A stretch of DNA of 24,000 nt, taken from assembly GCF_015207395.1 (NCBI RefSeq), contig NZ_JADEWX010000057.1, positions 7,235 to 31,234 on the forward strand. The letters are read 5' to 3'. The stretch is from Nodosilinea sp. LEGE 07088. GTDB lineage: Bacteria; Cyanobacteriota; Cyanobacteriia; Phormidesmidales; Phormidesmidaceae. The notes under the pieces are model-generated. The model was given only the letters and a program-made list of their open reading frames with translations. It ran no database searches and had not been told where the DNA came from. This document shows positions 3,758 through 21,557 of this stretch, one piece after another (within the stretch, counting starts at the first letter, position 1; each line of letters opens with the position of its first letter). Made by a program: the position numbers and the translations under genes.

Positions 3758-5662
3758 CTAGCCAGCCTTCACCAAAAACTTCTCAGGAATCTCGGTGTAC
3801 TGCCTCACAATTTGCCGAAACTCATCGCCGTCGATGGTTTCGCGCTCCAGCAGGGCATCCACCAGGTTATCCATTAGGGTGCGGTGCTGGCGCAGCATGG
3901 TGCGGGCGCGGTTGAGGCACGAGAGGGCAATGCCACGCACCTGGGCATCGATCTTGCCGGCCATTTCCTCCGAGACCTCGTTGCGGGGCATCAGGTTGCG
4001 GCCCAAAAATACCTGGTTATCCATGCTTTCGAGGGCCAGGGGGCCAAGCTCAGACATGCCGTAGAGGGTCACCATCTGGCGGGCCAGGTTGCTCACCTGC
4101 TGAATGTCGCCGCTGGCCCCGGTCGAGGTTTCGTCGTCGCCAAACACCTCGGCCTCGGCGGCAAAGCCCCCCAAAGCCACGGTAATGCGATCCATCAGCC
4201 AGTTGCGGGTGTAAAGGCCGCTGTCGATGATGTCTTCGTTGGGCAGCGATTGGGTAAAGCCTTCGATGCCGCCCGATCGCGGAATAATGGTGACTTTATT
4301 CAGCTCGTCGGAGTGGGTAAGCAGTGTGGTCAACAGCGCGTGGCCGACCTCGTGGTAAGCGGTCATGCGTTTGCGGCTGCTGTCGAGCAGGGGAGTGAGG
4401 CTGAGGCCGATGGTAACGCGATCGATCGCGTCTTCGATCTCAACCATACCCATGGCCTCTTTGCGGCGGCGGGCGGTGAGAATAGCGGCCTCGTTCAGCA
4501 GGTTGGCCAGCTCGGCTCCAGAGAACCCCGGCGTGCGGCGGGCGACGGCTTCCAGCGACACCTCAGCCTCGATTTTTTTGTCGCGGGCATGCACTTCTAA
4601 AATCGATAACCGCCCCTTGTAGGTCGGCAGGTCAACCACCACCTGGCGGTCAAAGCGGCCCGGACGCAGCAGGGCCAGATCGAGCACATCCACCCGGTTA
4701 GTGGCCGCGATTACAATAATGCCGCTGTTGCCCTCAAACCCATCCATCTCGGTGAGCAACTGGTTGAGGGTTTGCTCCCGCTCATCGTTGCCGCCGCCGA
4801 TGCCGGTACCCCGCTGACGACCTACGGCGTCAATTTCATCGATAAAGACAATACAGGGGGCATTTTCTTTGGCTTTGCGAAACAGGTCGCGCACCCGCGA
4901 CGCGCCCACGCCCACAAACATTTCGACAAATTCAGACCCCGAGATGCTGAAAAAGGGCACGGCGGCTTCGCCTGCGATCGCCTTGGCCAGCAGGGTTTTC
5001 CCCGTCCCCGGTTGGCCAATCAGCAGTACACCTTTGGGAATGCGCGCCCCAATGGCGGTAAATTTCTCTGGGCTTTTGAGGAAAGACACCACCTCTTGGA
5101 GTTCTTCCTTGGCCTCTTCGATACCGGCCACATCGTCAAATACGACGCCGGTTTTGGCCTCCATTTGAAAGCGGGCCTTAGACTTGCCAAAGCTCATGGC
5201 GTTGCCGGCCCCAGAGGCCGATCGCCGCAGCAGCATGAGCAGACCAAAGATGAGAATCAGCGCCAGTAGGGAATTCGTCGCCAGCCAGGCCAGCGCGCCA
5301 CTTCCCGACGAATCGCGAATGTCTACGTCTACGTCGTTGGCGGTCAGGGTGCGAATCAGTTCGGCATTGCCACCCTCAGCGAATAGCATCACCTCCTGGG
5401 GCGGGGCATCTTCGGCAGCACCATCGAGCTGCACGTAGGCAATTCCCCGAGCTTCATCGATTTCAACCGACTCGACCTCGCCTTGCTCAACCTTCTGCAA
5501 AAACTGACCGTAGGTCAACTCATCAGACTCGGCTTGGGCCAGGGCAGGGGGGAGGGGCATTAGGCTCTGCAACAGAAACCAGCCAATGGTCATCAATCCT
5601 GTGGCGGTTGCGCCCGCAGCAGGACGCAGCGAAGATTGCTTACCAGAAAAACGTAGGGTCAT
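3758..5662 (-). CDS. ftsH: ATP-dependent zinc metalloprotease FtsH (divergent paralog)
   Basis: Two N-terminal TM segments, Walker [14 protein letters not shown], Walker [11 protein letters not shown], second region of homology [20 protein letters not shown], and zinc site HEVGHAL. Confidence 0.93.
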
Positions 5663-5907: not shown

Positions 5908-6987
5908 TTAGCTCTGAATTGTCGGGGCCAGATAGGCAACCGGAGTAGCTGGGCCGTTGGCTAAATCGAGGGGAAAGTTATGGGCATTGCGTTCATGCAT
6001 GACCTCAAAGCCCAGATTGGCTCGGTTGATCACGTCAGCCCAGCTGGGCAGCACTCGACCCTGGGAATCTAAAATCGAGTGGTTAAAGTTAAATCCATTT
6101 AGGTTAAAGGCCATGGTGCTAATGCCCAGGGCAACAAACCAAATACAGACTACGGGCCAGGCCGCCAGAAAAAAGTGCAGCCAGCGAGAGTTGTTGAAGC
6201 TAGCGTACTGAAAAATTAGGCGGCCAAAGTAGCCGTGAGCCGCAACAATATTGTAGGTTTCTTCCTCTTGGCCGAACTTGTAGCCGGAGTTTTGAGATTC
6301 ATTGTCGGTGGTTTCTCGAATCAGGCTTGAGGTCACTAAAGACCCATGCATGGCAGAAAACAGAGAACCTCCCAGAACTCCTGCGACCCCCAGCATGTGA
6401 AAGGGATGCATCAAGATATTGTGCTCCGCCTGAAACACAAACATAAAGTTGAACGTGCCGCTAATCCCCATGGGCAATCCATCGGAAAAGCTACCCTGAC
6501 CGATGGGGTAAATCAAAAATACCGAGGTGGTAGCCGCAACGGGGGCACTGTAGGCCACGCAAATCCAGGGGCGCATGCCCAGGCGGTAGCTCAGTTCCCA
6601 CTCTCGGCCCAGATAGCAGAGCAGGGCTGGAATGTAGTGGAAGGCAATCATTTGATAGGGGCCACCGTTGTAGAGCCATTCATCTAGGGTGGCGGCCTCC
6701 CAGATCGGGTAAAAGTGCAGCCCAATGGCGTTAGATGACGGCACCACAGCAGCGGTAATAATGTTGTTGCCGTACAGCAGTGAACCCGACAGGGGCTCGC
6801 GAATGCCGTCGATGTCTACCGGAGGAGCAGCAATAAAGGCGGTGACAAAAACCACCGTTGAAACGCCTAGTAAAGGAATCATCAGCACGCCAAACCAGCC
6901 AATATAAAGCCGATTTTCAATGCTAGTGATCCACTGGCAGAACTGCTCCCAGGTACTGTTGTCCTGGCGTTGGAGAGTTGTAGTCAT
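5908..6987 (-). CDS. psbA3: Photosystem II D1 protein, far-red (FaRLiP) paralog
   Basis: Full-length D1 (MTTTLQRQ...). It retains the Mn4Ca ligand positions: FSDGLPMG (D170), [12 protein letters not shown] (E189/H190) and [15 protein letters not shown] (H332/E333/H337/D342/A344), plus a C-terminal extension. It is embedded in the FaRLiP array. Confidence 0.93.
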
Positions 6988-7018: not shown

Positions 7019-7050
7019 ATTGAAGCAAAAGAATATGAAGAACCTGGGAA
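7019..7050 (-). promoter_or_regulatory. Candidate psbA3 promoter: TTCCC-N6-TTCAT, 10-nt spacer, then TTCAAT (gene-sense)
   Basis: The plus strand reads ATTGAA(7019-7024)-N10-ATGAAGAACCTGGGAA(7035-7050). It shares the 11-mer AGGTTCTTCAT with the chlF and apcD5 elements in the same gene-relative orientation. It lies between the hairpin at 7073-7101 and the psbA3 ATG (6987). Confidence 0.45.
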
Positions 7051-7072
7051 AATTCGCCGGTCAGATACAAAT

Positions 7073-7101
7073 GTAGGGGCTTTGCAGTGCAAAGCCCCTA
7101 C
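7073..7101 (-). terminator. Perfect GC-rich palindrome (hairpin) between the 48-codon ORF and psbA3
   Basis: GTAGGGGCTTTGCA-G-TGCAAAGCCCCTAC, a 14-bp stem. A partial third arm, TGCAAAGCCCCTA, follows at 7111-7123. Confidence 0.5.
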
Positions 7102-7130
7102 AACCGGCACTGCAAAGCCCCTATGGTGTT

Positions 7131-7277
7131 CTAGCTGCGATCGCTGGGGTAGGTTCTATACCCGTACCAAATAAAGGCAATGCAGCCCAGGGCAAATACC
7201 AGCAGGCTCAGAAAAATGCCGCTGGCGGTGGCAGAGATTTGGCCTTCACCGTAGGCGAGATAAAAGAGTGGCAGCAT
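7131..7277 (-). CDS. Unlisted 48-aa single-TM protein, a candidate small PSII-associated subunit
   Basis: Hand translation gives MLPLFYLAYGEGQISATASGIFLSLLVFALGCIAFIWYGYRTYPSDRS, with stop TAG at 7131-7133. GAGG lies 6-9 nt upstream of the ATG (7275-7277). It is on the same strand, 60 nt after psbH2 and before psbA3. It is below the ORF-track length cut-off. Confidence 0.5.
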   Translation of the reverse strand: MLPLFYLAYGEGQISATASGIFLSLLVFALGCIAFIWYGYRTYPSDRS

Positions 7278-7337
7278 AGGATTACCTCATTAGATTTTTG
7301 GGTACGCTATTTGCCCGCAGAATTTGCATACAGATGC

Positions 7338-7556
7338 CTAAAATCCTGAAGGCTGATAGGTGTTCGCCCCATCGAGCACAATGGTGCCGTTGTAAAGCTG
7401 CAAAATAATCAGCAGAAACAAAAACAGCATGGCGATCATAAAAACCATAAATGGAGTGGTGCCCCAGCCTGGGGCAACCCGTCCAGCTTCAGCGTTAAAC
7501 CGCCGGAGAAAATACTGGATTGGGGCTACTTTTTTAGGAACAAATTTTTGTTGCAT
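7338..7556 (-). CDS. psbH2: Photosystem II reaction centre protein H, far-red paralog
   Basis: The PsbH core motif VAPGWGTTPFMVFMIAMLFLFLLIILQLYN matches the canonical GWGTTP...FLLIILQIYN. Its position after psbB2 is typical of FaRLiP clusters. Confidence 0.88.
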   Translation of the reverse strand: MQQKFVPKKVAPIQYFLRRFNAEAGRVAPGWGTTPFMVFMIAMLFLFLLIILQLYNGTIVLDGANTYQPSGF

Positions 7557-7605: not shown

Positions 7606-7633
7606 GTAGGGGCATAGCATGCTATGCCCCTAC
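7606..7633 (-). terminator. Perfect 28-nt palindrome between psbB2 and psbH2
   Basis: GTAGGGGCATAGCA|TGCTATGCCCCTAC. It has the same outer arms (GTAGGGGC...GCCCCTAC) as the hairpin at 7073-7101. Confidence 0.5.
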
Positions 7634-7730: not shown

Positions 7731-9266
7731 TCAAATGGTGGTTTGAGTTTGACGTGTGGTCGTATCGCCCACCTTTTGGAAGTAGCCCCATTCCACCTGC
7801 TCAATGTCTAGATCGGGGTCAACGCCCGAGAATACATCCTGGAAGATGGCGCGGAGGCCGTGCCAGATGTGACCAAAGAACCAGACCAGTGCAAAGCAGG
7901 CGTGGAAGAAGGCGAAGAAGCCCCGGTTGCTGGTTCTAAAGGCCCCGTCAGAGTTGTAAACCTCACGGTCAAAATCGAAGGGCTCTCCTAGCTGGGCCTT
8001 ACGGGCATACTGCTTAACCTGGGTGGGGTCGCTAAAGGTTTTGCCGTTGAGCAGCCCGCCCAAAAAGCTGACGGTAACGCCGGTTTGCTCGAAGCTGTAT
8101 TTAGAGTCCATGCGGCGGAAGGGAATGTCGGCTCGGATCAGGCCGTCTCTGTCGGTCAGCAGCACCGGGAAGTTCTCGAAGAAGTTGGGGATGCGACGCA
8201 CCGTTAGATCTCGACCTTCTTGATCTTTGAAGACGGGGTGGCCCAGCCAGCCGGTGGGTAAACCGTCGCCATCGACCATGCGTCCCACCCGGAACAGGCC
8301 GCCCTTGGCAGGGCTATTGCCGACGTAGTCGTAAAAGGCGAGCTTTTCGGGAATGGCGGCCCAGGCTTCGGGTAGGCTCTTACCAGCTCTTACCCCGGAC
8401 TGCACGCGGCGATCAATTTCTTTTTGAAAGTAAGCCTGATCCCACTGGTAGCGGGTTGGCCCCCACAGCTCGATCGGGGTGGTGGCGGTACCGTACCACA
8501 TGGTGCCAGTGGCAATGAACCCGGCGCAGAAAAAGACCGCCAGGCTACTGGCCAGCACCGATTCTATGTTGCCCATGCGCAGGCCCCGGAATAGATTTTC
8601 GGGGGGGCGCACGAAAATATGAAACAGGCCGCCGATAATGACGACGATGCCGAGGGCAATGTGGTGGGCCACGACGCCACCAGGGTTTTGGGGGTCAAAG
8701 CCCGCTGGGCCCCAGTCTGGGGCCACCCCCTGGACGTGGCCGGTGAGGCCAAAGGGGTCTGAAACCCACATGCCGGGGCCAAAGATGCCGGTCAGGTGGA
8801 AGGCCCCAAAGCCAAAGCAGAGCAGCCCGGCCAGCAAAAGATGAATACCAAAAACCTTGGGTAAATCGATCACGGGCTCGTCGGTCTTGGGGTCGAAGAA
8901 GGTGGCGACATCCCAATACACCCAGTGCCAGCAGGCGGCTAAAAACTCTAGGCCTGCGAAGACAATATGGGCGGCGGCGACCATCTCAAAGGTCCAAAAC
9001 CCGGGGTCGGCAAAGGTGTCGCCGGTAATGCTCCAGCCCTGCCAGGAGTTGGTTACCCCCAAGCGGGCGACAAAGGGCATCAGAAAGCAGCCCTGCCGCC
9101 ACATGGGGTTGAGCACCGGGTTGGTGGGGTCGTAGCGAGCGAGCTCAAACAACAGCATTGAGCCGGCAAACCCGGCACAGAGGGCGTTGTGCATGAGGTG
9201 TACCGCTATAAGCCGCCCTGGGTCGTTGATGACCGAGGTGTGAACGCGATACCAGGGAAGTCCCAT
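7731..9266 (-). CDS. psbB2: Photosystem II CP47 chlorophyll apoprotein, far-red paralog
   Basis: [10 protein letters not shown]... start and full-length CP47 (511 aa) with the large lumenal loop. Cluster context. Confidence 0.93.
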
Positions 9267-9429: not shown

Positions 9430-10893
9430 CTATCGTTCGCTGGGGTCGATGGGCGGCATGGAGAGCACCGGCTCGTTTTTGCGATCGATGCCGACAATGA
9501 ACCCCGCCGCCGTCGCCCGCGCCAGCCCGGCGTGCCACCAGTGCCCCACTAAGAAGAAGAAGGCGAAGATAAAGTGGGCCGAGGCCAGCCAGGTGCGCGG
9601 CGAAACGTAGTTAAACGCGTTGGTTTCCGTCGCCAGACCGGCCACCGAGTTGATCGAGCCCAGGGGGGCGTGGGTCATGTATTCTGAGGCGCGGCGCACC
9701 TGCCAGGGCTGGACGTCGTTTCTGAGTTTATTTAGGTCTAGGCCGTTGGTGCCGCGCAGGGGTTCTAGCCAGGGAGCCTTGGCATCCCAAAAGCGCATGG
9801 TTTCGCCGCCAAAGATAATTTCTCCACTGGGCGATCGCTGTAGATACTTACCCAACCCGGTCGGCCCCTGGGCCGACGCGATGTCGGCCCCCAAGCCCTG
9901 GTCGCGCACCAAAAACACCAGCGACTGCGCCTGGGATGCCTCGGGAATCGTCGGGCCGTAGAACTCGCTGGGGTAAACCGTATTGTTAAACCAGATGAAC
10001 GCCGTGGCGATAAAGGCCTGCCCGGCAATGTTGCCCAGGCTCTGGGCCAGATAGGTTTCCCCACTCCAGGGGTAGAGGTTGTGGGTCCAGCGCAGGGGCG
10101 GTACCAAAATGTGCCAAATGCCGCCGATCACCAGCAGCGAGCCGATCCAAATGTGGCCGCCGATCACGTCTTCTAAATTGTCGACGCCGATAATCCAGCC
10201 GCTGCCGCCGTAGGGGCTATGAAACAGGTAGCCAAAAATAATCCGGGGGTCGAGGGTGGGGTTGGTGATCAGCCGCACGTCGCCGCCGCCCGGAGCCCAG
10301 GGGTCGTACAGGCCGCCCCAGAACATGGCTTTGCAGACAAACAGCAGGGCAAAAATGCCCAGAACACCGATGTGGAAGCCCAAAATTTGGGCCACCTTGG
10401 CGCGATCGCCCCAGTCAAAGTCAAAATAGCCCGAGAGCTTTTCTGGCCCGCGCAGGGCGTGGTAGAGGCCGCCAAAGCCCAAAATCGCCGAGCCAATCAG
10501 GTGAATGACCCCGATGGCAAAGAACGGGAAAATGTCGATGATTTCGCCGCCGTGGCCGACGCCAAAGCCCAGGGTGGCAATGTGGGGCATGAGAATGCAG
10601 CCCTGCTCGTACATGGGCTGGGCCGGGTTGTAGTGGCTCACCTCAAACAGCAGCATGCCCCCGGCCCAAAAGGCCAGTAGGGCCGCGTGGGCGATGTGGG
10701 CACCCAAAAAACGGCCAGTTAGATCGGTGGTGATCAGTCGAGCATTGCCTGCCCACCAGGCGTAGCCGCTGGATTCCTCGTCGTAGCCAGCTTTATTGGA
10801 GGTATTGCGATCCCCTTCGTTAACGAAGGGGGTGAGGGTGTTGAGCGAAATGTTGTCTAGTGAAGATGCGATCGGTTCTATGGGGGTTTCCAC
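9430..10893 (-). CDS. psbC2: Photosystem II CP43 chlorophyll apoprotein, far-red paralog (probable GTG start at 10893)
   Basis: [11 protein letters not shown]...[22 protein letters not shown] is the CP43 N-terminal signature. AAGGAG lies 11 nt upstream of the in-frame GTG at 10891-10893. The longer ORF to 10977 would begin inside a perfect palindrome. Confidence 0.88.
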
Positions 10894-10945: not shown

Positions 10946-10979
10946 GGGTGAGGGGCGCACCGCGGTGCGCCCCTCACCC
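10946..10979 (-). other. Perfect 34-nt GC-rich palindrome in the psbD3-psbC2 junction
   Basis: GGGTGAGGGGCGCACCG|CGGTGCGCCCCTCACCC. It starts 1 nt after the psbD3 stop codon (10981-10983). Confidence 0.6.
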
Positions 10980-12773: not shown

Positions 12774-12995
12774 GGATTTATGCAGAAAGTAAACAGGTGA
12801 AATCGTTGGCGTTTATATTCAGTTCCAATCCAGCGGGCTGAGCTTAGATTCTGTAAACCTGAATGCCGCCAAACCAGCCAATGGCAATGCGATAGCTGAA
12901 GATAGCCCGCAGCTTTTTGCGCCAGTGAAAGATAGCTGCCAATGGGTTTGGCCAAAGATTCAGGGGCCGGTTAGCCGCAGAGAGGTGGGTTCGGG

Positions 12996-15383
12996 TCATG
13001 GTGAATTGGCCTCCGAGGGCTGGGCCGCTGTCGCCATCGGCTCGGGCTTTGCTGCCGGAGGCGAGGACGGATGCCCGTTGTGGGCTGCAGCCTCCGGGGC
13101 GAGGTTGGGTACTGGCGATGGTGCCATTGACGCTGGCTCCGCCTGGCGATCCAGCACCGCTACGGCAGAAGCACTCTGGGCGGTACTCTGGGCAGCACTC
13201 TGGGCGGCACTCTGGGCGGCACTCTGGGCAGTACTCTGGGCGGCCATCCACTCGCCAGCGATGGCGGGGTTGTGGCGGGGCTTGCCCCAGGCGGTGGGGC
13301 CCTGGGGCGATCGCAGGGCATAGCCCCGGGGGGTCAGGTAGCGATCGTAGGGCACCGTTTCATCCCCAAATACCTGGGCGTATTCAGGGCTGTCGATGAT
13401 GGCATCGACCAGGGCATAAAAGCCCGCTTTACCGGCGATGTCGTAGTAGCGGTTGAGCTCTGCGCGGCCATAGGTGGGGCGGCCCAGCAGGCGGCGGTGA
13501 ATGCATTCAATTGACTTAGTGATGTACAGGTTTTCCCAATACATCTGTCGAAAGGCACGGGAGTAGGCGAGCTGGCGGACAAAGTCTCGCAGGGTAATCT
13601 CGCCGCCCTTGAGTTTGGTTTCGGCCACATCCTGCCGCTGGCTGTCGAACACCTCGCGGCCAAACACCTGACGGTAGGCTCCGAGAATGACAGCATCCAT
13701 AGAGTGATGGGCAAGATTCACGTTGGGGCCCTGGGGATGGCTACCCCGCTCGGGCTGGTGGGAGGGCTCCAGCTTAAACACCGACTGGCCAAACAGCCCC
13801 GGCACTCGGCCCAGGTGGGCTGAGGCATTGGGCTCAACGTGCCCATTGTGTCGCCGACCATTCTGCAGCCCGCTGCTGATTAAAATGCGGCGGCTAGTCG
13901 AGCTAAAGTGGGCCGGTTGGGCACTGGGGTGGCGGGTTTCGTCGGGGAAGATCGCCCCAAACTGAATCTCTAAGGGGTCGTTGCCCACGCCGTAGGGGTG
14001 CTGATCGGGCAGCGGTTTTTGGGCGCGGGCAAAGGTGGTGACAAACTGAGGTACCTTGCGGGCCGGGGCGCTGTACTTAAATAGGTCAAGCTGCGGCCCC
14101 CAGTTGCGGCATTCCTGCGCCTCTATCCCTAGACCCCTGAGGTAGGGTACGGTCTCTTCGCCAAAGTAGTCGGCGTACTCCTGGGAGTCGACCAGGGCAT
14201 CGACCAGGGCGGGCAGGCCCCCCTCGGAGATCACGTCGAAGTAGGTCTGAAATTCTTCTAGGCAGCTCAGCCCGCGACCCAAGAAATGCCGATGGGCCAG
14301 CTCAATCACCCGGCTAATCGTAAACGGCTCGTAGAACTCGCGCCGGTAGAGCCGCGATTTGCCCAGGTGCCGCACAAACTCTTTCATGGAATACAAGCCG
14401 CTTCTGAGCTTTGACTCCAGATCGCTCGCGGCCAAGCCGTAGGCCTGGGTTACATCGCGCTCAAGCACCTGGCGGTAGGCGGCGCGAATGGCCTCCTGAA
14501 GTTCGGTCTCCGACAGCCCTGGTTTAACGACTAGCTTGGGCGTCGGCAGCGCGCTCTGGTAATAGCTCTGGGGCAGGGGCTGCCCAGGGTGGAGTTTCGA
14601 CACGCCAATGCGCAGCCGATCGTCGGGCTTTTCCACCAGGTAGTCGGTGATCAGTACCTCAAAGTAGCGCTTGACCAGGGCGGCGGCATTGCTATCGGGC
14701 AGCAGGCACTGACCCGCCTTCCACTGCATTTCTCGCAGGGCGACGACGGTGGCCAGCGTCACATCTTCGGGAATGACGCCCCGCAACCCCCGAGTGTTGA
14801 CGGTGATAATGCTGGTGTCGCCCGCCACCATGGCGTAGGTGACGTAGCGCAAAAACCAGGCCAGATCGCGCATCGAGCGCTTCATCCGCGCCGTGCCGTA
14901 CTTGGCAATGCTGATGGTGCGAAATCGACTGGGAACGCTGGGCCGACCCTGGGCAAAGAGTGACGCGATCTGATCCACCAGGGTATTGGTAGAGTCGATT
15001 GACTGAGGCTCTTTGAACTGGGTTATTGAGGTGCCCTTGCCACGTCGGTGGCGGACGTTAGCCGACAAATAGTCTTCGCCGATGTAATATCTTGAACCGG
15101 GCATGCCGATGGGGTCGGTGGGCCGTTCGAGATAAGCCATCGGCGAACCGCCGGTAAAAATACGGTTGGCCCCTGCGGCCACAATTTTGTCGGCGTTTTG
15201 CGTCAGCGCGGCAGCGATTTCCAGGCGCTTTTGCCCCGACTCAAAAAAGGCCGAGAGGGTTTTGAGCTCGCTGGATTTTGGGTAGCGATCGCGCTGTTCG
15301 GCCTCGGCAATTACGGCCGTGGGCACGGTATGAAATGCTTGCGGGTGAGTAACTGGGCTGCCCCCGTTGGTCCGATTAGTCAT
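12996..15383 (-). CDS. apcE2: Far-red phycobilisome core-membrane linker with two REP domains (start at ATG 15383)
   Basis: The N-terminus MTNRTNGGSPVTHPQAFHTVP aligns with the canonical ApcE start. It has a phycobiliprotein-like domain with a loop insertion and two linker REP domains (YRQVLERD...VDSQEYADYFGEETVPY and YRQVFGRE...IDSPEYAQVFGDETVPY). The upstream TTG at 15416 is less likely. Confidence 0.9.
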   Translation of the reverse strand: MTNRTNGGSPVTHPQAFHTVPTAVIAEAEQRDRYPKSSELKTLSAFFESGQKRLEIAAALTQNADKIVAAGANRIFTGGSPMAYLERPTDPIGMPGSRYYIGEDYLSANVRHRRGKGTSITQFKEPQSIDSTNTLVDQIASLFAQGRPSVPSRFRTISIAKYGTARMKRSMRDLAWFLRYVTYAMVAGDTSIITVNTRGLRGVIPEDVTLATVVALREMQWKAGQCLLPDSNAAALVKRYFEVLITDYLVEKPDDRLRIGVSKLHPGQPLPQSYYQSALPTPKLVVKPGLSETELQEAIRAAYRQVLERDVTQAYGLAASDLESKLRSGLYSMKEFVRHLGKSRLYRREFYEPFTISRVIELAHRHFLGRGLSCLEEFQTYFDVISEGGLPALVDALVDSQEYADYFGEETVPYLRGLGIEAQECRNWGPQLDLFKYSAPARKVPQFVTTFARAQKPLPDQHPYGVGNDPLEIQFGAIFPDETRHPSAQPAHFSSTSRRILISSGLQNGRRHNGHVEPNASAHLGRVPGLFGQSVFKLEPSHQPERGSHPQGPNVNLAHHSMDAVILGAYRQVFGREVFDSQRQDVAETKLKGGEITLRDFVRQLAYSRAFRQMYWENLYITKSIECIHRRLLGRPTYGRAELNRYYDIAGKAGFYALVDAIIDSPEYAQVFGDETVPYDRYLTPRGYALRSPQGPTAWGKPRHNPAIAGEWMAAQSTAQSAAQSAAQSAAQSTAQSASAVAVLDRQAEPASMAPSPVPNLAPEAAAHNGHPSSPPAAKPEPMATAAQPSEANSP
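13173..13244 (-). repeat. Six tandem 12-nt units (ACTCTGGGCRGY on the plus strand) encoding (AQSA/T)n in the apcE2 tail
   Basis: Counted directly: units at 13173, 13185, 13197, 13209, 13221 and 13233. They translate as AAQSTAQSAAQSAAQSAAQSTAQSA. Confidence 0.9.
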
Positions 15384-17428: not shown

Positions 17429-17482
17429 AGAATAAGCGATAAAAATGAAGAACCTATGAAGCATGAATTTTGCTTCAAGAAA
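17429..17482 (-). promoter_or_regulatory. Candidate apcD5-operon promoter: TTCAT-N6-TTCAT, 10-nt spacer, then TATTCT (gene-sense), plus conserved upstream flank
   Basis: The plus strand reads AGAATA(17429-17434)-N10-ATGAAGAACCTATGAA(17445-17460). 17441-17460 is a 20/20 reverse-complement match to 20251-20270 upstream of chlF, in the same orientation and at similar distance from the start codon. Confidence 0.55.
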
Positions 17483-17848: not shown

Positions 17849-17940
17849 CAATGATTGTCCTGGGTGTGGCCTAGGCGGCAGCGTCCTTCTCTGTTGTCCA
17901 GAAAGCCGCAGTAAACCCTATGCCAAAGAGGTCAATTTTT

Positions 17941-18783
17941 ATGCGCTATCGCACCTTGGTTGCTGTAGTTTTAGCCCTTTGCCTGGGGCTGATTACAGCG
18001 TGCAGCGGCAGCCCCCGAGCGGGAGATCAAGCTTTGAGCTATGACCAAATTAAAGGAAGCGGGTTGGCTAACCTATGCCCGCAAATTTCTGAAACCCGGC
18101 GAGATGCGATCGCCATTGCTCCTAATCAGTCCTACACCCTAGAGGAGATGTGTTTACAGCCCACCGCCTTCTTGGTTAAGCAGGAGCCGTTGGTCAAGCG
18201 CGCCAGCGCCAGCCAGGCCACCCAGTTTATGCCCACCAAGCCGCTGACCCGAGCTAGTTTTTCCATTGACCAGGTCAGTGGAGTATTAAAAGCCGATGCC
18301 GACGGTCGCCTGACCTTTATGGAACAAAGCGGCTTCGACTTTCAGCCGATTACGGTGCAACTCCCCGATGGCGAGCGCGTGCCGCTGCTCTTTTCTATCA
18401 AGGGGCTGGTGGCGCAAACGCTGGAAGCGGCCAAGAGCATCAACCCCTTAACCCAGTTCAGCGGCACCTTTCAGGTACCGGCCTACCGCACCGCAGGCTT
18501 TTTAGACCCCAAAGGGCGTGGGGTTATGGTGGGCTACGATGCCGCCGTAGGCTTACCCCCCCAGGCCGATAGTAAAGAGTTTCAGCGCTCGAATACAAAA
18601 GTCTTTGAGGTTGACGAAGGCACGTTGACCCTGCGGGTAGAGCGGGTAGACCAGGGTACCGGAGAAATCGCGGGGGTGTTTGAAAGCATTCAGCCCTCGG
18701 ATACCGACTTTGGCGCTAAAGATCCCATGGATGTCAAAATCCAGGGTGTTTTCTACGCCCGACTGAACTCAGAAATGGCCTAG
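17941..18783 (+). CDS. psbO: Photosystem II manganese-stabilising protein PsbO, cluster-encoded paralog with a lipobox-like signal peptide
   Basis: LSYDQIKGSGLANLCP...MCLQPTAFLVKQEP, DFQPITVQLPDGERVPLLFSIKGLVA, YRTAGFLDPKGRG and VKIQGVFYARL all match PsbO. The start is taken at ATG 17941 (AGAGG 9 nt upstream). The signal sequence ends LGLITAC. Confidence 0.88.
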   Translation: MRYRTLVAVVLALCLGLITACSGSPRAGDQALSYDQIKGSGLANLCPQISETRRDAIAIAPNQSYTLEEMCLQPTAFLVKQEPLVKRASASQATQFMPTKPLTRASFSIDQVSGVLKADADGRLTFMEQSGFDFQPITVQLPDGERVPLLFSIKGLVAQTLEAAKSINPLTQFSGTFQVPAYRTAGFLDPKGRGVMVGYDAAVGLPPQADSKEFQRSNTKVFEVDEGTLTLRVERVDQGTGEIAGVFESIQPSDTDFGAKDPMDVKIQGVFYARLNSEMA

Positions 18784-19269: not shown

Positions 19270-19785
19270 TTAGCGTCCAGGCTTGCCGCTGGCCCAGATG
19301 CGACCAATAATATTGGGCTGGGCTAACACATAGCCAGAGATATCCGCTAAATCTTGATCGGTGAGCGTCTTCATTCTGGGGAATAAATCGACCCTGGCCG
19401 TGGAGGGATGAAGTTCTTCCAGTGACCCTAGGCCGTCGTAGGTGGTGGGATTTTTCAAGTAGTCAATAATTCCTTCTAAATTGTCGCGAGCAGGGAGTGC
19501 TAAGGCCAGAGTCTGTGGGGCCAGACTAATATCTGGATTGGGCTTAGTAATGCCGTCTAAATGGCAAGCAGAGCAGGTGCCGTTAAATTTCTTGCGACCG
19601 TTGGCAAGCTGTTGTTCGGTCAAGGTGATGACATCACCCGATGCGTTGAGCGGCACCGTGCGGGCCGACTCGCTGATTTCAATAGCGAGGGCGGCTTTAG
19701 TGGGTATTTGAAAAGCTATAACTATAGCTAGGCCAACTATCAGGAGGATTCTTCCTGGCATAAATTTTTCAAAAAATTGAGCCAT
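19270..19785 (-). CDS. psbV: Cytochrome c-550 (PsbV) paralog
   Basis: Signal peptide, heme motif CSACH, DNLEGIIDYLKNPTTYDG and ELHPS (distal His) match PsbV. AAGGA lies 7 nt upstream of the ATG at 19785. Confidence 0.85.
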   Translation of the reverse strand: MAQFFEKFMPGRILLIVGLAIVIAFQIPTKAALAIEISESARTVPLNASGDVITLTEQQLANGRKKFNGTCSACHLDGITKPNPDISLAPQTLALALPARDNLEGIIDYLKNPTTYDGLGSLEELHPSTARVDLFPRMKTLTDQDLADISGYVLAQPNIIGRIWASGKPGR

Positions 19786-20237: not shown

Positions 20238-20282
20238 GCAGATTTTCACATTCATAGGTTCTTCATTTTTCTCTTCTAGGTT
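20238..20282 (+). promoter_or_regulatory. Candidate chlF promoter: TTCAT-N6-TTCAT, 10-nt spacer, then TAGGTT
   Basis: TTCATAGGTTCTTCAT(20251-20266)-N10-TAGGTT(20277-20282). 20251-20270 is identical to the reverse complement of 17441-17460. The flanking GCAGATTTTCACA resembles the apcD5 flank GCAAAATTCATGC. Confidence 0.55.
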
Positions 20283-20351
20283 AAGCAGTAATTGAGCACG
20301 GCCAACCCTGCGTTGGAGGGGGTGCCGTCAGTTTTGGTTGAGGAACTACTT

Positions 20352-21557
20352 ATGACCACACAGCTTGGTAGAACGGTTGCCATCAATCGTTCTAGCCAAC
20401 TTGAAGCCGCAGAGATAACTCGCCGCACACCGGCTGGTTTAGGGCGCAGACAAATTAACCCTTGGGAGCGCTTTTGTCGGTGGGTAACGAGTACTGAAAA
20501 CCGCATTTATGTTGGCTGGTTTGGGGTGCTTATGATACCCACGATGGCTACGGCTGCCACCGTGTTTGTTCTGGCCTTTATCGCCGCTCCAGCGGTAGAT
20601 ATGGATGGCACTGGGCGAGCCATTTCGGGCGCCCTGCTTGACGGTAATAACCTGATTAGTGGGGCCGTGGTGCCGACATCGGCGGCCATTGGGCTACATT
20701 TTTACCCCATTTGGGAGGCCGCCTCTTTGCAGGAATGGCTGACCAACGGTGGCCCCTATCAGCTGATCGTGCTGCACTTTGTGATTGGCATCATCAGCTA
20801 TCAAGATCGGGAGTGGGAGCTGAGCTATCGCCTGGGCATGCGCCCCTGGATTTCGCTGGCGTTTACGGCTCCGGTGGCGGCAGCGGTGTCGGTGCTGCTG
20901 ATTTATCCGGTGGGCCAGGGGAGTTTTTCTTCGGGTATGCCCCTGGGAATTTCCGGCACCTTCACCTTCATGCTGCAATTTCAGGCCGACCACAACATTC
21001 TGGCCAGCCCATTTCACCAGCTTGGGGTAATTGGCGTATTTGGCGGGTCGTTGCTCTGTGCGGCCCATGGTTCTCTGGTGACCTCGGCAGTTATTCGCCC
21101 GGGCGTTGGCGAAGCCTCTCGGGAGCATCGCCCCTTGGGGTGGAAGAAACCCGCCTGGGCCGTGAGACCCGGTCAAACCTATAGCTTTGACTATGCCCAA
21201 GCCCACCAGGAGAAGCTGCTCTGGCGAGGCATGAAATTTAAAGATTCGCGATCGCTGCACTTTTTCCTGGCCGCCTTTCCGGTTGCGGGGATTTGGTCGG
21301 CAGCGTTGGGAGTGGATATGGCCGCCTTTGGGTTTGATCGATTTTCGGTGGGCGGTGCCATGGAGAGCTATGCCCAAAAGACCGTGGTGCCCACCTGGGC
21401 CGACCTCGTAACCCAGGCCAACCAGGGCATTAAGGCCATTGAAGAGACAGACACCATGTCGGTTCCAATTTTGCTGAGTGCCGCCGCCGATCGCGCAGCA
21501 GCCGCTGCCGACGATGGGGGTCTGCTATTGCAGCAAGTCAGTGACCCCTTGGGCTAG
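20352..21557 (+). CDS. chlF: Chlorophyll f synthase (super-rogue D1, PsbA4/ChlF)
   Basis: D1 fold, but the Mn ligands are lost: FSSGMPLG replaces FSDGMPLG, QADHNIL replaces QAEHNIL, and no [14 protein letters not shown]-terminus is present. It has [10 protein letters not shown] (the QD motif) where D1 has GREWELSY. Start taken at ATG 20352 (MTTQLGR, GAGGA 7 nt upstream). Confidence 0.88.

Follow-up and report, generated by a model that had tools for sequence, protein, structure and literature searches.

Some far-red PsbH proteins have been reported to carry a second C-terminal helix, and a separate 48-residue protein encoded downstream of psbH2 was noted bioinformatically in the same study, with examples that included Nodosilinea (Gisriel et al. 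2022, PMC9325196, section 3.7). The psbH2-linked helix was proposed there to be a novel subunit of far-red photosystem II (PSII) that originated by gene fission. The name psbH2' comes from Antonaru et al. (bioRxiv 10.1101/2024.05.15.594131, 2024; Curr Biol 2025), who placed psbH2 and psbH2' together in an inferred ancestral apc-psb operon. More recently, the density of an unknown helix in the far-red PSII of Chroococcidiopsis thermalis was sequenced de novo with ModelAngelo and shown to be PsbH2' (Leong et al. 2026, PMC13396731). In that structure, PsbH2' is located close to the dimer interface beside PsbB2 and PsbH2, touches PsbH2 at both faces of the membrane, stabilises the lipid LMG628 and forms part of the site of chlorophyll (Chl) B617, which was assigned as chlorophyll f and linked to absorption at ~749 nm and emission at 751 nm. 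The authors hypothesised that PsbH2' keeps this Chl f, which is peripheral and weakly ligated, shielded from the membrane, and they drew an analogy with PsaJ2 of far-red PSI, another small peripheral helix that stabilises a peripheral His-ligated Chl f (B30 in PSI, B617 in PSII). PsaJ2, however, belongs to a different photosystem, is unrelated in sequence and has a white-light subunit as its paralogue, while no white-light counterpart of PsbH2' exists. The gene was reported to be absent from Synechococcus 7335 and Calothrix NIES-3974 (PMC13396731). For Synechococcus sp. PCC 7335, the apo far-red PSII also contains an unassigned single transmembrane (TM) helix that was modelled as poly-Ala (Gisriel et al. 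2022/2023), but at a different site; we rejected it as a candidate for PsbH2' because this strain is reported to lack psbH2' and because lipids fill the site in the dimer.

The window analysed here, a stretch of 24,000 nucleotides from Nodosilinea sp. LEGE 07088, contains a complete Nodosilineales-type FaRLiP cluster. On its minus strand lie four allophycocyanin-type genes and apcE2, then psbD3, psbC2 and psbB2, and the cluster further carries psbO2, psbV2, a ChlF-like D1 paralogue and psaA2. The psbB2 gene for far-red CP47 (7731..9266, minus strand) encodes a protein that is 80-97% identical to PsbB2 of other FaRLiP loci. Next comes psbH2 (7338..7556, minus strand), the far-red PsbH paralogue, which is recognised by Pfam PsbH (E=3e-20) and by the NCBIfam PsbH equivalog model (E=2.5e-27). 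Its best matches in the PDB are 9t5t_H (1e-23) and 8eqm_H (8e-23) versus ~3e-16 for white-light PsbH, so that far-red PsbH2 chains exceed any white-light PsbH by seven orders of magnitude. After a gap of 60 nt, between the psbH2 stop at 7338 and a start at 7277, a 48-codon open reading frame (ORF) follows on the same strand (7131..7277, minus strand; ATG at 7277-7275, stop codon TAG at 7133-7131). A Shine-Dalgarno sequence, GAGG (7285..7288, minus strand), lies 7 nt 5' of this ATG. The translation is MLPLFYLAYGEGQISATASGIFLSLLVFALGCIAFIWYGYRTYPSDRS, which includes the stretch MLPLFYLAYGEGQ... and bears the motifs LAYGEGQ near the N-terminus and TYPxDR at the C-terminus; the 19-residue hydrophobic maximum covers residues 18-36 with a mean Kyte-Doolittle value of 2.46, and a single TM helix is predicted. 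An earlier note on this DNA, made from the sequence alone, had pointed to this ORF, and its coordinates, its 48 codons and its translation were reproduced exactly, as were the GAGG at 7288-7285 and the single hydrophobic segment. The ORF is not truly unlisted, as had been thought, because an identical protein is recorded in GenBank and RefSeq (MBE9138359.1 / WP_193966848.1), where MBE9138359.1 is labelled 'hypothetical protein IQ254_14380' of Nodosilinea sp. LEGE 07088.

Comparison of the window peptide with all PDB chain sequences by phmmer retrieved 9T5T chain G, annotated as PsbH2', with E=5.7e-10 over residues 3-47 of two 48-residue proteins. When a profile built from 14 family members was used instead, the same chain was matched with E=6.1e-24 over positions 1-47, and apart from 9t5t_G the profile search returned noise only (E>=0.33, the next match being at E=0.33). 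No Pfam or NCBIfam model covers the peptide. The product resembles PsbH2' of C. thermalis PCC 7203 in its length of 48 residues, its AYGEGQ and TYPxDR motifs, its single TM helix, the position of its gene immediately 3' of psbH2 in a FaRLiP cluster and the significant match over its full length. Only about half of the residues are identical between the two proteins; for example, a metagenomic copy close to the solved C. thermalis orthologue (locus L022) is 47% identical to the window peptide. This identity is concentrated in the two terminal motifs and is lower along the helix face, which reads GCIAFIWYGY in the window protein versus LCVLLIVYAS in C. thermalis. The host of the window protein, moreover, belongs to the early-branching Nodosilineales lineage.

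A further line of evidence is provided by natural fusions of PsbH2 and PsbH2', which have been described in Leptolyngbyales/Elainellales (PMC9325196). One protein of this kind (P0010, 123 aa) comprises an entire PsbH2 and, C-terminal to it, a second helix that is homologous to the window peptide (BLASTP, 58% identity over 36 residues, E=2e-13), and the family profile matches it at residues 88-122. In contrast to such fusions, the window contains two separate cistrons 60 nt apart, with psbH2' having its own Shine-Dalgarno sequence and ATG, and P0010 has a linker in place of the N-terminal LAYGEGQ. Based on these sequence matches, we identify the product of the window ORF with high confidence as an orthologue of PsbH2', a single-helix subunit of far-red PSII. 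The earlier note had suggested an additional small subunit of far-red PSII that might be found as unassigned single-helix density in cryo-EM maps; the orthologue has in fact already been built as chain G in 9T5T (PMC13396731). Recognition of psbH2' in the window is thus a correct re-discovery and not a new finding, because the gene had already been described (2022), named (2024/2025) and structurally resolved (2026).

The distribution of psbH2' was examined with several search strategies. A word-indexed search of 5.8 billion proteins returned three family members only, all of 48 aa, one of which was the identical Nodosilinea protein; both of the others are encoded between psbH2 and psbA3. FaRLiP loci were then fetched with PsbH2 as bait and searched for psbH2' by tblastn, which revealed an intact ORF after psbH2 in another eight genomes, among them Nostoc, Elainellaceae and Leptolyngbyaceae. 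Scanning metagenomes with the family profile yielded 17 more loci, every one of which has an ATG-initiated ORF of 43-48 codons directly 3' of psbH2, and an exhaustive profile search of 1.84 billion representatives gave ten relatives. The family is therefore visible only by exhaustive profile search and by tblastn on fetched loci, most of its members having been missed by the word-indexed search. Altogether, an intact psbH2' ORF of 43-50 codons was found in 28 of 28 copies (27 loci and the window) from diverse cyanobacteria. In each case, psbH2 is the immediately preceding gene on the same strand, 19-175 nt away, while the downstream genes vary, and the product has (L/F)AYGEGQ close to its N-terminus and TYPx(D/N)(R/Q) as its C-terminal motif. 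The start signal is also widely shared: each of the 11 loci of the first set has GAGG or GGAG at the equivalent position, as do most loci of the second set, but the marine lineage (L024-L030) lacks it. The reading frame was kept in all 27 homologous loci found by the TBLASTN comparison of FaRLiP clusters that had been proposed as a check.

Selection on the ORF was assessed from the differences between copies. For pairs with unsaturated dS, dN/dS ranged from 0.08 to 0.26, and in the closest pairs the differences at codon positions 1, 2 and 3 numbered 9/2/17 and 8/5/14, which is an excess at the third position. Indels or stops in the syntenic spacers of related strains, which would speak against a gene, were not seen, since all 28 frames are intact, dN/dS is low throughout this range and the Shine-Dalgarno sequence is kept in most lineages. 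We conclude that psbH2' is a genuine coding gene under purifying selection.

Two loci in our collection, L008 (a Phormidesmis MAG) and L012 (an uncultured cyanobacterium), contain psbH2 and no psbH2'-like ORF 3' of it (searched in L012 at 4190-4700). Thus, psbH2' is optional in FaRLiP, and these two loci represent natural 'minus' cases for comparative spectroscopy. Two related database proteins, P0005 (73 aa) and P0011 (31 aa), have a PsbH2'-like start (M..FYLAYGEG...), after which the sequence diverges or ends prematurely. They have the appearance of products of frameshift, truncation or misassembly, and some psbH2' genes may therefore be decaying.

The placement of the ORF between psbH2 and psbA3, on which the earlier note had relied, holds for the window and does not hold as a general rule, since psbH2 alone is the invariant neighbour. 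In the window, psbA3 for far-red D1 (5908..6987, minus strand; Pfam Photo_RC, E=4e-89) is the downstream neighbour, an arrangement seen in this lineage only. It lies on the opposite strand in L006, L007, L008, L010-L012 and L017-L019, being convergent on the other strand in several Leptolyngbyaceae-type loci, and it is upstream of psbH2' in L025-L029; in the marine lineage the distance upstream is 6-8 kb and apcE2 is found after psbH2'. A linkage between psbH2' and psbA3 was rejected because psbA3 is located elsewhere or on the opposite strand in many clusters that keep the psbH2-psbH2' pair. The gene is tied to psbH2 and is not functionally tied to psbA3.

Residues of the partner subunits in the window may provide clues to the site that PsbH2' occupies. 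Residue 107 of PsbB, which is Leu in white light and Glu, Gln or Ser in far-red PsbB2 (PMC13396731), is Glu in PsbB2 of the window. In PsbH2 of the window, the residue that corresponds to Thr5 of white-light PsbH is A11, as obtained by extending the phmmer alignment without gaps (query 16 = chain 9 in 3wu2_H); A11 also pairs with A12 of 9t5t_H. Both features, PsbB2-107 and the PsbH2 Ala in place of the white-light Thr5, are published signatures of the B617 site (PMC13396731, PMC9325196). As for orientation, the N-terminus of PsbH is stromal and its C-terminus lumenal (PMC9325196). The N-terminus of PsbH2' (LAYGEGQ) is inferred to be lumenal and its C-terminus (TYPxDR) cytoplasmic, because, in the natural fusion, the helix follows the PsbH part, which ends in the lumen. 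The charges, with E11 on the N side of the helix and R41 and R47 on the C side, put this topology in agreement with the positive-inside rule.

Taken together, the best explanation, and in our opinion a very likely one, is that psbH2' encodes a far-red-exclusive PSII subunit that docks onto PsbH2 and PsbB2 and covers Chl f B617. According to this model, psbH2' would be translated from its own Shine-Dalgarno sequence as the last cistron of an apc-psbD3-psbC2-psbB2-psbH2 unit. As judged from the structure of its C. thermalis homologue, the protein would pack against PsbH2 and PsbB2 near the dimer interface, where it could cover the otherwise membrane-exposed B617 on the cytoplasmic side, help to hold chlorophyll f there and anchor the galactolipid LMG628 on the lumenal side. 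Physical presence in far-red PSII has been shown for PsbH2' of C. thermalis only and would extend to the Nodosilinea protein by homology, and the latter presumably acts as its C. thermalis orthologue does. With regard to the mechanism, we have moderate confidence that PsbH2' may stabilise Chl f at B617. It is also predicted that Nodosilinea sp. LEGE 07088 carries the B617 chlorophyll f.

Alternatively, PsbH2' might be a transient assembly or repair factor of the PsbB2/PsbH2 module, or might have a lineage-specific role other than the shielding of B617. PsbH is known to act in the assembly of the CP47 module and in D1 repair (PMC9325196), and the absence of psbH2' from L008 and L012 shows that FaRLiP clusters can do without it. 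In addition, the phylogeny of PsbH2' requires heterotachous models, from which the authors of the structure suggested 'possible functional heterogeneity' among lineages (PMC13396731). The residues of the helix face differ from those of C. thermalis, and a Nodosilineales-type face, G31-C32...W37-Y38-G39-Y40, is missing in Chroococcidiopsis. It is conceivable, if improbable, that PsbH2' with this face binds or tunes its neighbouring pigment differently, or that it docks far-red allophycocyanin or takes part in assembling the CP47 module; a lineage-specific role of this kind would fit the functional heterogeneity that those authors suspected. However, the orthologue shows clear density in purified dimeric far-red PSII (PMC13396731), the partner signatures of B617, PsbB2-E107 and the PsbH2 Ala, are both present in the window, and conservation extends to the terminal motifs, through which PsbH2 and the lipid are contacted. 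We therefore consider an assembly factor or a divergent role to be unlikely for the window protein in comparison with a structural subunit at B617.

The earlier note had also pointed to a weak resemblance to PsbJ, with EGxI near the N-terminus and F..YG.Y at the end of the helix, which would make the protein a far-red PsbJ paralogue ('PsbJ2') replacing PsbJ beside cytochrome b559. PsbJ (PF01788) is indeed another small PSII subunit with one helix and a comparable size, and it shares a superficial EG...YG pattern, but this similarity is visual only and failed every test, no homology to PsbH2' being detectable. All 14 family members lack a Pfam PsbJ match at E<=10, and no PsbJ chain in the PDB, which has at least 29 distinct PsbJ sequences, was matched at E<=10 by either the window sequence or the family profile. 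In an hhalign comparison with a T. elongatus-type PsbJ, whose query was verified to be genuine, the probability was 0.5% with one aligned column. The 'YG' at the end of the helix is specific to Nodosilinea-like copies and is missing from most family members. Moreover, PsbJ (chain J) and PsbH2' (chain G) are separate chains with different binding sites in the same far-red PSII structure, 9T5T, and the gene sits after psbH2, outside any psbEFLJ context. PsbJ homology was thus rejected, and we regard a PsbJ2 as extremely improbable. Homology to PsbX and PsbY, two families that had also been put forward for HMM comparison, was rejected in the same way, as Pfam, NCBIfam and PDB sequence and profile searches were negative, and PsbX, PsbY and the other standard small Psb subunits all gave no match at E<=10 in Pfam or NCBIfam. 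This agrees with the earlier impression that the peptide could not be recognised as any standard small Psb subunit.

That the ORF arose by chance in a non-coding spacer, its conservation being due to a regulatory RNA or DNA element, can practically be dismissed: although ORFs of ~50 codons are frequent by chance in the window and the peptide has no Pfam or NCBIfam family, its frame is intact in every copy, including lineages with saturated synonymous sites, the codon-level constraint and third-position excess point to a protein, the ATG and Shine-Dalgarno sequence are conserved and an orthologous protein has been built into cryo-EM density (9T5T).

The preferred reading, in which psbH2' encodes a PSII subunit at the B617 site, bears on how FaRLiP clusters are annotated. 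PsbH2' is the only far-red PSII subunit without a white-light counterpart and is linked to the longest-wavelength Chl f site (B617, ~749 nm), and its gene is still labelled 'hypothetical protein' here and in most records. IQ254_14380 should be re-annotated as psbH2', and the 28 intact copies could seed the family model that is missing from Pfam and NCBIfam. Recognition of psbH2' helps to predict which strains have an extra red-shifted antenna pigment.

Directly after the psbH2' stop codon lies a GC-rich hairpin or intrinsic-terminator-like element (7072..7123, minus strand) that contains GTAGGGGC...GCCCCTAC repeats, in line with the hairpin that had been noticed next to the ORF. The segment 7123-7074 has a minimum free energy of -39.9 kcal/mol (z = -4.8 versus dinucleotide shuffles), and a consensus scan found a terminator-like stem at 7102-7072 followed by the T-rich tail TTTGTATCTG. 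Stem-loops of differing sequence occur 3' of the psbH2' stop in most related loci. The distance from the hairpin to the psbA3 ATG is 85 nt, and this spacer holds a T-rich block whose core, AGGTTCTTCAT (7035..7045, minus strand), is found 48 nt before the psbA3 ATG. The exact sequence AGGTTCTTCAT occurs three times in the window versus 0.25 expected, at 7035-7045 (minus) before psbA3, at 17445-17455 (minus) before the first apc gene and at 20256-20266 (plus) before chlF. All three are in sense orientation, upstream of the starts of units and within longer T-rich blocks, local alignments of which reached z=3.6-4.6, and the motif is conserved in L002. The regions upstream of psbH2, psbB2 and psbD3 have no similarity to these blocks.

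A T-rich FaRLiP intergenic motif was reported by Antonaru et al. (bioRxiv 10.1101/2024.05.15.594131), who inferred that psbA3 has its own promoter. The AGGTTCTTCAT blocks are probably this regulatory motif, and the copy at 7035-7045 probably marks psbA3's own FaRLiP-regulated promoter. We suggest that psbH2' is probably the last cistron of the apc-psbD3-C2-B2-H2 unit, because it is followed by a terminator-like hairpin and a separate copy of the shared motif precedes psbA3. The earlier description of the ORF as lying inside the far-red PSII operon thus stands as far as membership of the unit is concerned; it needs correction in that psbH2' appears to be the last gene, the unit not continuing into psbA3. 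Given its place at the 3' end of a motif-bearing apc-psb unit, psbH2' may be expressed in far-red light only.

The palindromic GTAGGGGC...GCCCCTAC hairpins bracket the psbH2-psbH2' pair, one being located between psbB2 and psbH2 (7606-7633) and the other after psbH2' (7073-7101), and the repeat is also found at 10210-10217. The palindrome octamer occurs five times in the window versus 1.06 expected, and a related hairpin follows psbH2' in L002. These hairpins may constitute a lineage-specific repeat family for RNA processing, stability or termination.

Several other features of the cluster were observed. The optional far-red paralogues psbO2 (17920-18783, plus strand) and psbV2 (19270-19785, minus strand) lie beside chlF (20292-21557, plus strand), and carriage of psbO2/psbV2 has been reported for the early-branching Nodosilineales lineage (Antonaru et al.). 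The chlF ORF as listed begins with TTG and its Photo_RC match starts only from residue 72; the true start codon therefore probably lies further 3'. Similarly, the 5' end of the psbC2 ORF (GTG at 10977) is probably over-extended, because the Pfam match starts at residue 71. A full-length gene for an FtsH protease (3758-5662, minus strand; 634 aa, AAA and Peptidase_M41 domains) follows psbA3 on the same strand after 245 nt. This is of note because damaged D1 is degraded by FtsH. The two genes are not adjacent in the close relatives L001 and L002, so their proximity here may be coincidental.

Another small ORF, '...AIFSYRIAIGWFGGIQVYRI', spans the apcE2 stop codon (~12844-12999, minus strand) and has been called as a 47-aa gene in L002 (817-960), where the C-terminal 34 residues are 76% identical to those of the window. 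As a second small gene it is probably spurious, because tblastn found it in this closest relative only and in none of 11 other loci that cover the 3' end of apcE2. In the Nostoc loci L005 (4530-4640) and L009 (4458-4570), the psbH2' stop is followed at ~25 nt by another short ORF, the product of which starts like a signal peptide (MKRIFTLVLVIILWLGIITSALA...). A PsbH-coding fragment was also detected in a 563-bp contig (L013) from an assembly labelled Chitinimonas prasina. This species is a non-photosynthetic betaproteobacterium, and the fragment is almost certainly cyanobacterial or plastid contamination.
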